A stretch of 26,095 nt of DNA from a virus (lineage: Duplodnaviria; Caudoviricetes): IMG/VR virus record IMGVR_UViG_3300048575_000470, positions 1-26,095 of that record; one strand, 5' to 3'. Positions within the stretch are counted from its first letter, which is position 1. The number at the start of each line of letters is the position of its first letter. Below the pieces are notes generated by a model. It saw only the letters and a list, made by a program, of their open reading frames with translations. It did no database searches and was not told the origin of the DNA. Below are positions 14,334-26,089 of the stretch, one piece after another. A program made the translations under genes and the position numbers.

Positions 14334-14935
14334 GGCCGATCCCCCAGCAAGGCAGCTTCAAGGTGGCGACCGGCAAGGGCGCTGATCTCGTTCGCGTTAT
14401 CAGCACTCATGCCGAGATATGGGCGCGCGTGGATGTAGACGTCGTGTTCGGGTATTTCGACATGGCTCTCAAATGTCGCTTTCGACTTCTTTACGAAGCG
14501 GTAGAGGGACATGTCGACTTTCTCGCCGAAAGGCGTGTTGGCCGCACGTTCGAGTTTTTCCTTGCTGCGGTAGATGCTTTGGGATCGCGCATAAACCTTG
14601 TAGCGATTGCCAAATTGCATCGCGGCGGCATAGACACGGTTCGATCCCTGTTCGACGCCGCCGCCGGGCAGAATGTTGTAGGTCTGGCTCGCAAAGAGAA
14701 ACCCTTCTTCGTAGAGCGTTTGGCCTCCAGTCCGCTTCGCGCGTTGGGACGGCAGCCAGGGCGTGCCGTCCGGCTCGGACTGTGTGTCGAACCGCATCTG
14801 TGTGTGGCTGACAAGCGAATGGCCAACAGCGTCCCAAAACTCATCAGATTGGCGCTCACCGAACGTCTTCAGCCGTTCGCAGGCGTCGCGAACCATGGCG
14901 TCATCCCATTCGATTTCGAGTACCGCGCCGGTCAT
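14330..14935 (-). CDS. Virion morphogenesis protein (Mu gpG / tail completion S family)
   Basis: Motifs T..RF..Q..PDG.PW.PS, GSNRVYAA.MQFG and I.ARPYLGMS. Confidence 0.88.
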   Translation of the reverse strand: MTGAVLEIEWDDAMVRDACERLKTFGERQSDEFWDAVGHSLVSHTQMRFDTQSEPDGTPWLPSQRAKRTGGQTLYEEGFLFASQTYNILPGGGVEQGSNRVYAAAMQFGNRYKVYARSQSIYRSKEKLERAANTPFGEKVDMSLYRFVKKSKATFESHVEIPEHDVYIHARPYLGMSADNANEISALAGRHLEAALLGDRP

Positions 14936-15351
14936 CAGAAGTCCTTCAGGCTTTCACGGGTAAAGATGCGGGGCGGAGCCGTAACGATGATGGTGTCGGC
15001 TGGCTGGGTGGCCGGTGCCGCCGCATCCTGACCAATGAGCAGCGAGCGGCCGTCAGCAACACGACGCAGAAAGACGAGCTGGTCCTCATAGTCCTTGCGT
15101 ACGCGGTCGCTGCACGGGTCAGACAGATGGTAGCGCGCAATGGCGCATGTGATGTTGGCGAGCTGTTCGGTCTGATTGATGATGCCGGTGAGCTTGGCTT
15201 CCGAATTGACTTCTGCAGTCGCGTTTTCGAGAGCCTTGGTCAACACGCTCTCATCGATGACACCGGCGGGCGGGTTTGCGCGATCGGTAATGGCGATCAC
15301 CTCTTCAAGCCCGAAGCGGTCAATCATGTCCTGCTTGGTGGCGTACGCCAT
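14935..15351 (-). CDS. Mu gp36-like head-tail adaptor (DUF1320)
   Basis: The likely start is ATG at 15351 (MAYATKQDMIDRFG) with SD GGGAG. Motifs C.IARYHL and V.KDYE....FL..VADG. Confidence 0.9.
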   Translation of the reverse strand: MAYATKQDMIDRFGLEEVIAITDRANPPAGVIDESVLTKALENATAEVNSEAKLTGIINQTEQLANITCAIARYHLSDPCSDRVRKDYEDQLVFLRRVADGRSLLIGQDAAAPATQPADTIIVTAPPRIFTRESLKDF

Positions 15352-15384
15352 TCTTTGCCGCTCCCGGATGCTCTCGATCAAAGT

Positions 15385-15499
15385 GGGGACGGCGATCCAG
15401 GCCGATCACCGCCCCCTTTCACTCTCGTAGGCGCCGGGCTTTTGCCCTTGTTGGTTCCACCGTGGCCTGACCGGCGCGCCCTCTTCGCTCTCGGGGGAA
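15385..15499 (-). ncRNA. Putative structured RNA directly downstream of the tRNA (multi-stem, loop-loop pairing); 3' hairpin may also act as a terminator
   Basis: Folded by eye: GGGCGC/GCGCCT, GCCG/CGGT, GGGC-AAAA-GCCC and a 13-bp hairpin 15416-15404/15397-15385. Loops CAGGCC and GGCCTG are complementary. Confidence 0.5.
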
Positions 15500-15501
15500 T
15501 T

Positions 15502-15578
15502 TGGTTGCGCGGGTCGGATTTGAACCGACGACCTCTAGGTTATGAGCCTTGCGAGCTACCGAGCTGCTCCACCGCGCG
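15502..15578 (-). tRNA. tRNA-fMet (initiator, anticodon CAT), 77 nt, encoded CCA
   Basis: CGCGCGG TG GAGC AGCTCGGTA GCTC G CAAGG CTCATAA CCTAG AGGTC GTCGG TTCAAAT CCGAC CCGCGCA A CCA. Full cloverleaf with initiator determinants C1xA72, A11:U24, G30-C40 and G31-C39. Confidence 0.96.
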
Positions 15579-15585
15579 TAATCGG

Positions 15586-15933
15586 TCAGGGCCCTTTCGA
15601 CTTGGCGATCAGGTCGCGAAGCGCCTGGCGCCGCGCGTCCTTGCTACCGAACGGCTTCGGGTCGATGCCCTGCGAAGTCAGAAGCTGGCCAAGAGCATCG
15701 AACCCGAGCGCATCGATTTCGCCCTCGGTCGGCAACGAATTACCGCCACCTTTATCGCCCGTGTTCTCAAGCGGCGAGGACGAAGGGGCGAGCTTGACCG
15801 CGCCCGAGTTGATCATACGTTTGGAAAGGGTGTCGGGAAGCTCGATGCTGTCGCCTTCGCTGTAGATCTCACCATCGTGATGGATCGCCGTCAATGCAAT
15901 GCAGGCGATCAACGTGCTGGTCAATTTTGCCAT
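15586..15933 (-). CDS. Head-associated protein after major capsid (Mu gp35 / lambda FI-like position)
   Basis: 115 aa. N-terminal HDG.IY.EGD.IEL......GAV motif, a linker, then a short helical HeH/LEM-like C-terminus. Confidence 0.7.
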   Translation of the reverse strand: MAKLTSTLIACIALTAIHHDGEIYSEGDSIELPDTLSKRMINSGAVKLAPSSSPLENTGDKGGGNSLPTEGEIDALGFDALGQLLTSQGIDPKPFGSKDARRQALRDLIAKSKGP

Positions 15934-15945
15934 GCGAAGCGCTCC

Positions 15946-16878
15946 CTACGCCGCCGCGTCTTCGAAGAAGTAGCCGCAGCTCGACGCCACAACTCTTTCG
16001 TCAAGACACTTCACCGTGCGCGCAACCTCCGCGCCGTAGGCGCCGATCGAGCTGTCGGTATAGGTGCCCGCAACGGTTTGGCCGTATTTCGCGGTCCAAC
16101 CGAAGGTGAGCCCACCCATCGGGTCCGCCATCGGATCGATGAAGAGCATCGCCATGTGGTTGCCCCACAACCGGCTGAGGCTGGCCGTCTGGCCCGGCTT
16201 CGCGGTGTTGTAGCGCGCCGCACCGACATAGATGTTCTTGACTTCCAACAGCTCGGCAACCGCCTGCTTGGAAGCCGCACCGCTATCGCCCGAATTCCTG
16301 TTCGTCGCTGCGACGATGGTCGGGTTTTTGCGGAATGCCGTCCATGCGCCCTGGCCGAACACCAGCGAGTTCGGGCGCACGAGCGGAACGTCGAGTGCCG
16401 ACAACGCGAGCGACAGCGCATCGCAGCTCGCATGGCTGAACTGGCTCGTGCCAGAGAGAACTGTCCGGTTCGCTGCCGGATAAGTGGTGCGCGCGAAAAC
16501 CTTCGCCGCTGTGCGCTGTTCGTGACCGATATCGACGAACTGCGTCGCCTTCGCGGTGGCGCGGTCCAGCGGGTTCGGAACTTTGAGTTTGAGGGCGGCA
16601 TCGATGTCGCGCACCGGCACGGGAATTTCAAAGCCAAAGTCGTTGCAGCCGCCGGTCTTTTCGACGCCGCCGAGTTCGCCCTGCGGGACCTTGCCGCGAC
16701 GGCCGACCAGTGTGTCGGGAACATTGAACGGCTCGTCGGCCGGATATTCGAGATACTTGTATTCCTGGGTCAGCACCGTCACTTCGGGCAGAACCAGATC
16801 GGCGATAAACTCGGCATTGCGATACGCAATCGCGATACCGGTCAGCGCGGCGGAAACAGTGAAAGGCGTTCTGGACAT
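15946..16878 (-). CDS. Major capsid protein
   Basis: The likely start is ATG at 16878 (SD CAGGAG), giving 310 aa. LT.IAIAYRN..FIAD.VLP, RPN.LV.G and G.TFGWTA motifs. Follows the protease and decoration genes. Confidence 0.9.
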   Translation of the reverse strand: MSRTPFTVSAALTGIAIAYRNAEFIADLVLPEVTVLTQEYKYLEYPADEPFNVPDTLVGRRGKVPQGELGGVEKTGGCNDFGFEIPVPVRDIDAALKLKVPNPLDRATAKATQFVDIGHEQRTAAKVFARTTYPAANRTVLSGTSQFSHASCDALSLALSALDVPLVRPNSLVFGQGAWTAFRKNPTIVAATNRNSGDSGAASKQAVAELLEVKNIYVGAARYNTAKPGQTASLSRLWGNHMAMLFIDPMADPMGGLTFGWTAKYGQTVAGTYTDSSIGAYGAEVARTVKCLDERVVASSCGYFFEDAAA

Positions 16879-16902
16879 AAAAATCTCCTGCGCCAAGCGC
16901 GG

Positions 16903-17313
16903 TTAGCCAGCCACCGCGGGCGTGGTGACCTGCGTGCGGGCGAGATGAACGAGGATGAAATCGCCGTCGGCGGTCGCGGCTGAATAGGCAGTGCCGCCGC
17001 TCTGTGCCTTCGCGCCAGCGGCTGGCGTGCACGTTACGGCCTTGCCGTTTGCGTCGGACGTCACATACGCGCCGGCAGCAATGGCGCCTCCGGCTTCGAT
17101 TTCGGCGAGGCCTTCAAGAACCACGTCGAAGTGGTCACCATCCGCGGCGTCGATGTTGGGAACGCTTGCCCCCATCATAAGATCGGACGAGGCCGACGCT
17201 TGCACATAGTGCTGATCGCTGACCGTCGCATCGCCGGTCTTCGAGGGACGCACGAAGCGCCGAGACTTGATCGCGCCAACGGCGATCCTGGTAACCGTCA
17301 GACCGGGGTTCAT
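16903..17313 (-). CDS. Capsid decoration/cement protein (DUF2190-like)
   Basis: 136 aa. DVVLEG.AEIEAGGAIAAG..VTSDANGKAV and A.ADGD.I.V motifs. Confidence 0.82.
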   Translation of the reverse strand: MNPGLTVTRIAVGAIKSRRFVRPSKTGDATVSDQHYVQASASSDLMMGASVPNIDAADGDHFDVVLEGLAEIEAGGAIAAGAYVTSDANGKAVTCTPAAGAKAQSGGTAYSAATADGDFILVHLARTQVTTPAVAG

Positions 17314-18476: not shown

Positions 18477-18510
18477 GGCCCGTAACATGGCCTGAGCCGG
18501 ACGGGTCGTG

Positions 18511-18532
18511 GCCTTTGAAAAAATTCAAAGGC
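18511..18532. promoter_or_regulatory. Perfect dyad GCCTTTGAA-N4-TTCAAAGGC upstream of the protease gene; candidate late-promoter activator site
   Basis: 9-bp arms, AT-rich in a GC-rich background, centred about 45 nt upstream of ATG 18476. This is the position of the C-activated late promoter PI in Mu. Confidence 0.6.
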
Positions 18533-18789
18533 GATAGAGGCTGGCGGGGAAGATGCGCGTCGGACCGGAGAGGGCTGGCGTCGAAGCGGGGCGCCGAACT
18601 TTCATACCCCGGTTCGGGCCCATTTTGGAGGGGGTGCGGCCTTGCGAGGCGGAGCGGAGGGGGAGGAAAGCCCGGCATCCCTCACCAGAGGCCCCAAAAG
18701 GGGTTCAAAAGGCACGGTTAACGACCCGCGCGAACACCGGAGCGGCCCGGGGGCAAAATGGCCGCCAGCGGGCTCCCCTGACGGAGGCG

Positions 18790-25580: not shown

Positions 25581-26089
25581 GGCACGTACCGGAAGAACCG
25601 GTGGTGACCGATGGAGGCGAATGGCAGACCCTTAGCCCAGCCCGGCATGCGCACGGCATCGGGGTTGTAGTAGTGCGTCGTTTCGGGCAGCCGATCTTGA
25701 GCCTTGCCTGAGATCACGTCGCGGGCGAGCTGGTGGGCACGGCAGAACCGCGGGTCGCTGTGATCGACCTTCAGCGCCTTCTGGCGGTTCGGGTCGTTCT
25801 CGTTCCAGCACGAGAACTGGTGAAAGGTGCGAAAGCTCGCAAGACAGGCGCCCGCGATGGAGCCATCGCCAAACAAACTATGCGGCTTGCCGTGTTCGGC
25901 AAGGTGATCCTTGGCCAGCGCCACCCGGTGCATGATGACATAGCCGACGGCAATCTGGCCCTCTTCAGGTTCCGAACGCGCTTCGGCATAAATGGTCCGG
26001 GCGAGGACCTCGTCCTCGCCCAGGGCCGCGATGTTCCGGTCGGCATATGCGATCATGGCGGCGACAATGCGCTGCCGCCGCCGCGACAT
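25577..26089 (-). CDS. Endolysin, SleB/Hydrolase_2 cell wall hydrolase family
   Basis: Motifs LARTIYAEARSE (catalytic Glu), GQIAV..VI..RV, QFSCWN..DPN, THYY and IG.HRF. The exact start is uncertain at the window edge. Confidence 0.92.
   Translation of the reverse strand: MSRRRQRIVAAMIAYADRNIAALGEDEVLARTIYAEARSEPEEGQIAVGYVIMHRVALAKDHLAEHGKPHSLFGDGSIAGACLASFRTFHQFSCWNENDPNRQKALKVDHSDPRFCRAHQLARDVISGKAQDRLPETTHYYNPDAVRMPGWAKGLPFASIGHHRFFRYVP

Follow-up and report, generated by a model that had tools for sequence, protein, structure and literature searches.

Mu-gpT-DE (RF03012) is named for its site downstream of Mu gpT capsid genes, and the RNA element described here likewise lies downstream of a gpT-type capsid gene in four of its five members, although the RF03012 model has 53 positions and the element about 122 nt. 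In attenuators, the base of a terminator-like hairpin is contested by a strand of a structured domain. The element shares with attenuators and riboswitch platforms an upstream structured domain and a place in a long operon, and one of its strands is likewise predicted to contest the base of such a hairpin. RNA-based antitermination has also been described for conAn (PMC8191782). Unlike attenuators and conAn, the element has a hairpin loop that would pair with the upstream domain, a weak tail, and a mid-operon site among phage structural genes. The pRNA of phi29 (PMC4201828) resembles it in length (about 120 nt), three-way junction and two complementary loops; in the element, however, the second loop is carried by a separate terminal hairpin outside the junction domain. 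Moreover, pRNA serves the phi29-family motor (gp10 connector, gp16 ATPase), whereas the phage studied here encodes Mu gp27 and a large terminase, and most of its relatives are without the element. The manA (RF01745), ROOL and GOLLD RNAs are also phage-associated and structured, but their models do not match the element, and ROOL averages 581 nt, with GOLLD longer still. Short manA RNAs form 8- to 60-mers via intermolecular kissing loops (10.64898/2026.07.01.735769), manA is found in what are probably the 5' UTRs of metabolic genes (PMC2864571), and ROOL and GOLLD occur near prophage tRNAs (PMC5737381). Finally, theta ribozymes (PMC10879173) provide a parallel for the two members of our family that adjoin the 3' end of a phage tRNA; in contrast to them, none of the five members contains the nested double pseudoknot with a C opening J4/2, as judged by a loose descriptor uncalibrated on a known ribozyme.

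The window (the whole stretch of DNA analysed, 26,095 nt) is a 26-kb provirus record with a Mu-like late region on the minus strand, on which all features below lie unless stated otherwise. This region runs from the small and large terminases through portal, Mu F, protease and cement/scaffold genes to the capsid gene; the portal is of Mu type and the small terminase is Mu gp27. The major capsid gene (15946..16896) is B3-like (phrog_1005, E 1.3e-70; 41% identity to the phage B3 capsid). It is followed by a small gene in the gp35 position (15586..15933, an ORF with a sub-threshold DUF7210 match only), a tRNA-Met(CAU) gene with a C-A first pair and an encoded CCA (15502..15578), the RNA element (15375..15496), the gene for the Mu gp36 head-tail adaptor (14935..15351; PF07030, E 2.5e-19; phrog_195) and the tail genes. 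Since one homolog of the element sits in genome G079, which belongs to the same order as G006 (Rhizomicrobium), we infer that the host of the phage is alphaproteobacterial. A 300-nt non-coding gap between Mu F and the protease gene (18489-18789) is presumably where a late promoter would be expected. Two other features of the window lie on the plus strand. A tRNA-His call by ARAGORN (25723-25806), antisense to the endolysin gene, is probably spurious, since it is absent from the Rfam calls. A 618-aa ORF (15127-16983) runs antisense across the capsid gene, the tRNA and the element, in register with three sense genes; it has no family match and is probably a shadow frame, and coding by it over the element is disfavoured by indels of 1-2 nt among the members.

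Alignment of the five members delimits a conserved RNA of about 122 nt. It begins with a 5' CCCC (15493..15496) that is invariant in four of four columns, followed by a purine-rich leader (15482..15492) and a three-way junction domain (15429..15481). This domain is closed by P2 (15481-77 with 15433-29), whose five pairs form in 25 of 25 cells with one one-sided change. Within it lie the 5-bp hairpin P3 (15458..15476; 25/25 cells), whose loop L3 (15471-63) contains the 5' strand of a loop-loop helix, CAGGCC (15464..15469); an invariant AAC (15454..15456) within the linker from P3 to P4; and P4 (15437..15446), with a 3-bp stem invariant in all five members and an (A/U)AAA loop invariant in three of four columns. 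A linker of 12-14 nt (15417..15428), in which the members differ by 1-2 nt indels, leads to P5 (15385..15416). In every member P5 is a GC-rich hairpin of 13 bp with a predicted energy of -24 to -27 kcal/mol; its pairs form in 65 of 65 cells with three one-sided changes, and its loop L5 (15403-398) supplies the 3' strand of the loop-loop helix. The tail (15375..15384) has few U residues in the 8 nt 3' of P5 (4, 3, 4, 3 and 3 in the five members) and a near-invariant (G/A)AUC, and conservation stops there.

The initial annotation had drawn much of this fold by eye, and its coordinates on the minus strand are exact throughout: the stem GGGCGC (15481-76) with GCGCCT (15434-29), the hairpins GCCG-[GTCAGGCCA]-CGGT and GGGC-AAAA-GCCC, the segments CG-AGAG-CG (15493-86) and CG-AGAG-TG (15427-20), a third CGAGAG (15376-71), and the 13-bp hairpin at 15416-15385 whose loop GGCCTG (15403-398) is complementary to CAGGCC (15469-64). 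The homologs adjust this picture. The stems are real, but the junction stem and the stem of the first hairpin each come to 5 bp, and the element lies where it had been placed but is conserved to about 15375, beyond the proposed boundary at 15385. The symmetric AGAG/AGAG loop is not a family trait, with AGAG on both strands in one of five members, and the third CGAGAG, though present, belongs to a run of purines ahead of the following start codon and is missing in two of five. Nor is fusion to a tRNA a defining feature, as three of the five members are without a tRNA and start 0-9 nt past a stop codon. The purine loop beside P2 may bear some likeness to the substrate loop of the VS ribozyme.

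Taken alone, the window sequence does not go beyond chance. Its folding z-score is -1.55, 15 of 200 shuffles fold as well, and its minimum-energy fold omits the first hairpin as originally drawn. In 20,000 shuffles a perfect 6-nt complement to the P5 loop arose in 7.1% anywhere in the upstream 85 nt and in 0.39% within a fixed 9-nt loop. It is the homologs that lift the element above chance, because the pairs of P2, P3, P4, P5 and the loop-loop helix form in 160 of 160 cells over 32 pairs, a level of matched cells that 9 of 500 shuffles reached. These pairing counts come from an alignment fitted to our own model; with partners slid out of register, 34-45% of cells pair. The shuffle test, on five related sequences, matched the observed pair count in 49 of 500, and the 9 of 500 for cells lies in a range that unstructured related sequences reach in 5-25% of cases according to the tool's own guidance. 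The stems are close to invariant (47 of 52 columns), at a distance where the gp36 proteins are 60-79% identical and gp36 fourfold sites are 40-51% identical in nine pairs and 69% in one, with 5 of 35 such sites invariant in all five members. G-U to A-U exchanges in the stems are consistent with the minus strand being the sense strand. In L170, whose P5 is possibly homologous, 13 of 13 pairs are kept with two two-sided changes.

Two-sided changes within the family are confined to the loop-loop helix, where three of the six positions change on both sides and 30 of 30 cells still pair. The chance of this agreement was 0.012 by column permutation and 4 in 120 by permutation of whole loops. Among 93 unrelated hairpins with the same stem letters, six have a perfect complement upstream and none has it in a minimum-energy loop, as against three of five family members on each test and five of five with G-U allowed. 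The earlier proposal is thereby borne out as regards a structured RNA that is conserved and whose loop-loop pairing covaries, and the comparison of sequences points to such an RNA, about 120 nt long, in five Mu-like phages, where it lies between head genes and neck genes.

Besides the window, the family comprises four homologs, L167, L168, L169 and L339, the first three from a gp36-anchored search. Among 301 genomes of the host order, 10 carry gp36, and L339 alone of these carries the element. In held-out scoring, L339 reached 77.8 bits with a model built without it (R1), and L167-L169 reached 90-113 bits with model R2. The family occupies 5 of 218 distinct capsid-to-gp36 intervals. Model R1 gave no match in 100 capsid-anchored and 88 gp36-anchored loci; a metagenome scan on gp36 yielded no member, and a metagenome hairpin scan, which gave 79 loci, yielded nothing new, one locus being a copy of L167. 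In 151 host-order genomes, model R3 recovered G079 and three weak matches, of which one, before a metabolic gene, was taken as chance and the other two were poor alignments. The junction pattern matched one of 401 genomes of the class, a pattern on the AGAG register of the initial annotation matched no viral contig, and blastn against phages and plasmids returned tRNA or short chance matches only. Further scans of genomes of the host order and class, metagenomes and gp36-anchored loci yielded no sixth member. Three rhizobial hairpins (L178, L198 and L209) share the letters of P5 and were rejected, as the upstream domain is absent; their prophage loci contain strings of hairpins with purine- or pyrimidine-rich loops near a GapR-like gene. 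A GapR-like DNA-binding gene also lies just before gp36 in L167 (2259-2501, PF10073), L170 and L341, and in L167 it stands between the RNA and gp36.

The genes upstream of the element vary among the members. In L167 and L168 the element directly follows a gpT-type capsid gene (PF10124 in L168, with 76% identity between the two), in L169 it follows a FluMu_N gene, and in L339 and the window it starts 5 nt after a tRNA that is 100% identical between them. The capsid upstream is gpT-type in four of the five members, whereas that of the window is B3-type, a different family. Despite its different capsid, the gp36 of the window is 66-79% identical to those of L167, L168, L169 and L339. Since the window's capsid family differs from that of the other four, the RNA travels with gp36 and not with a capsid type. 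The combination of related gp36 genes with a B3-type capsid in the window and gpT-type capsids elsewhere also amounts to head-module exchange.

Comparison with catalogued RNAs, the check that the initial annotation had called for, returned no family for the element. Rfam scans of the window, of the element up to E 10, of the four homolog loci and of 14 plus 20 further loci found only tRNAs above threshold. The suggested kinship with Mu-gpT-DE finds no echo in the Rfam model: RF03012 gave no match at the element even to E 10 and 10.1 bits at best elsewhere in the window (threshold 49), in a test that had no positive control, true members being found in 0 of 30 records. Nor did it match in four other member or look-alike records or in L061. 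This comparison is with Rfam's model of Mu-gpT-DE and not with the ZWD alignment, which differs from it (PMC7657543). The literature search returned no description of the element, although an entry in the supplements of PMC5737381 or PMC10690425 is possible; its motifs are absent from those supplementary tables of PMC10690425 (10,006 candidates) that were examined, which are part of the set. We rate the element as a new RNA family.

Folding of partial transcripts suggests that this RNA may pass through two exclusive conformations. The 5' CCCC and the G-run at the base of P5 are both invariant, so that the competing CCCC/GGGG helix has zero covariation. Earlier in transcription, CCCC is predicted to pair with the G-run of P2 (0.74). 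In chains cut 8 nt into P5, CCCC and the P5 G-run are paired in the minimum-energy fold of four of the five members, and when the cut falls 9 nt into the P5 3' arm the probability of capture is 1.0, 0.98, 0.92, 0.99 and 0.78. In the full-length chain it falls to 0-0.08. Shuffled leaders reached the observed capture in 0, 0, 1, 0 and 3 of 60, in a test designed after the pattern was seen. In this predicted state 1, a purine-rich 4x4 loop lies inside the helix (GAGA/GAAA or GCGA/GUAA in four of five members), with the leader as one side; shifted in register, it would be the conserved counterpart of the symmetric loop of the initial annotation. Once the chain is complete, the 3' C-run is predicted to claim the G-run of P5, and RNAalifold independently predicts that the leader pairs with the tail (state 2); in that helix one cell is broken and one position shows three types of pair. 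In all five members the energies favour the full-length fold, by 5.0-7.3 kcal/mol with pseudoknot and stacking energy excluded. The nascent RNA is thus predicted to capture the P5 G-run with its 5' CCCC and then to release it, though state 1 could be a folding intermediate without a regulatory role.

The explanation that we prefer, tentatively, is a co-transcriptional two-state attenuator that acts in cis at the head/neck boundary and would limit read-through into the neck and tail genes. During synthesis, the 5' CCCC would hold the G-run at the base of P5, so that only a 9-bp hairpin is possible and transcription reads through (state 1). The 3' C-run would then displace CCCC and complete the 13-bp hairpin ahead of the short U-containing tail, giving a stop (state 2), after which pairing of leader and tail would leave a closed, nuclease-resistant end. 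The junction, the A-rich loop and the loop-loop contact might time the exchange or bind a phage or host factor. Such a device would serve the need for many capsid subunits and few neck subunits, and the upstream tRNA, an optional neighbour found in two of five members, would be a passenger.

We favour an attenuator because the element has a fixed place at a gene boundary without room for a promoter, starting 0-9 nt past a stop codon or 5 nt past a tRNA and stopping a short way ahead of the following start codon, and because its strands are predicted to compete and its conservation ends about 10 nt past the hairpin. By eye, the same P5 stem letters precede U-runs in the unrelated contigs L223, L262 and L268. 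A census of terminators is weak support, since a hairpin with at least 5 U occurs in 27 of 218 distinct capsid-to-gp36 intervals in sense and in 16 in antisense. The loop-loop pair is altered on both sides between the two tRNA-bearing members, which fits a function that can do without a link to the capsid mRNA. Against the attenuator stands the weak U-tail of 3-4 U in 8 nt: none of the five members has the at least 5 U in 8 nt expected of an intrinsic terminator, and a terminator scan omits the element. In L438 and L452, a U-tailed hairpin comes right after the capsid gene and a look-alike element further on, a coexistence which implies that such elements are no simple replacement for a terminator. 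The available portion of PMC12867686 contains nothing on Mu late terminators. The stoichiometry of capsid to neck proteins from one long late transcript is usually credited to simple terminators; if the attenuator is correct, phages would have a new means of setting this ratio, in which a hairpin loop locked to an upstream junction is combined with two exclusive folds. The element is a small target, and natural compensatory variants are already available.

Somewhat less probable, and on balance unlikely, is a free small RNA that is cut from the late transcript, has paired ends and, through intermolecular pairing of its loops, forms rings or chains that act in trans on the host or on assembly. 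The predicted pairing of the 5' and 3' ends and the sharp stop of conservation at both would suit a released molecule, and a tertiary fold is suggested by the near-invariant stems together with A-rich segments left unpaired. Where a tRNA precedes the element, in two members, processing of that tRNA by RNase P and 3' trimming would release the 5' end of the RNA. The kissing-loop oligomers of manA and the occurrence of ROOL and GOLLD near prophage tRNAs are precedents. However, promoter space is absent and the place at the gene boundary is fixed in all five members, and a free RNA would make the second exclusive leader fold superfluous. A packaging role like that of phi29 pRNA, which the initial annotation had raised as speculation, is unlikely, since genes for both terminase subunits are present in this phage and the RNA occurs downstream of capsids of two families; its presence in only 5 of 218 intervals argues in the same direction. 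If the loops do pair between molecules, the element would add a natural RNA of 120 nt to the short list of self-assemblers.

We consider it rather unlikely that the element is a barrier to mRNA decay without switching, that is, an exonuclease-resistant knot that guards the head mRNA at its 3' end or the neck-tail mRNA at its processed 5' end. The weak U-tail suits such a barrier better than it does a terminator, and the element remains linked to gp36 in phages with different head genes. A precedent is the Rhodobacter puf operon, whose stoichiometry is set by segmental mRNA stability (PMC10064930). In the two members that carry a tRNA, however, its excision would separate the element from the capsid mRNA, and still two-sided change has kept the loop-loop pair; a barrier also leaves unexplained why an invariant 5' CCCC competes with P5.

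The two least likely readings are a self-cleaving ribozyme and a plain terminator. A new small ribozyme for processing of the late transcript or of the tRNA 3' end is very improbable: the compact fold with its junction, pseudoknot and invariant unpaired bases, the start 5 nt past the tRNA CCA in two of five members and the theta precedent would all be compatible with it, but the loose HDV-like descriptor and the hammerhead core were each found in none of the five members, Rfam scans to E 10 returned no ribozyme family, and three of five members are without a tRNA. The initial annotation had itself failed to fit a theta-like fold, and these scans agree with it. An ordinary intrinsic terminator with incidental upstream structure is slightly less credible still, for while the P5 letters recur in unrelated hairpins and the single-sequence z-score is just -1.55, the upstream domain is conserved as well as P5, L3 tracks L5 through two-sided changes, and the tail is poor.

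It is also conceivable, though doubtful, that the element founds a class of kissing-loop switches in phages, placed where head genes meet neck genes, that couple head output to neck and tail expression. In such a class, the folded domain might respond to a host signal or to a protein of phage assembly, or pair between RNA molecules, and further members would be L350, L087, L170, L438, L446 and phage POA1180, which have a similar layout with unrelated sequence. By eye, unrelated sequences in L350/L011 (3667-3775), L087, L170, L341, L394, L438, L446, L451, L452 and POA1180, and also in L006 (3455-3605), show a long 3' hairpin with a loop complementary to a segment upstream of it. These look-alikes often follow an A-rich stretch and a C-run, and that of L350 has a true U-tail. 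An automated screen of 69 non-coding hairpins for the layout matched 8, 5 and 3 of them at three cut-offs, compared with 3.1, 1.1 and 0.3 after loop swapping; family members make up 3, 2 and 2 of these matches, and several of the by-eye cases were missed. The wider class is thus suggestive, a lead and not established.

The capsid-gp36 gap of Mu-like phages is a recurrent place for tRNAs and uncatalogued RNAs. A second uncatalogued sequence family is found in L170 (1944-1985), L351 (1356-1460) and L353 (1950-2057), with 76-86% local identity and no Rfam match. Genes for tRNA-Met or tRNA-Gln recur in L061 (3788-3863), L170 (1864-1938), L352 (1943-2017), L339 and the window, and that of L339 starts directly past a stop codon. 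The tRNA-Met genes of the window and L339 are 100% identical, though the synonymous sites of their gp36 genes are 44% identical. This phage tRNA-Met, examined in the window, L339 and L461, shares 84% identity with another tRNA-Met of G079 and carries an A-A mismatch in its anticodon stem; it might serve, we presume, to escape a host anticodon nuclease.
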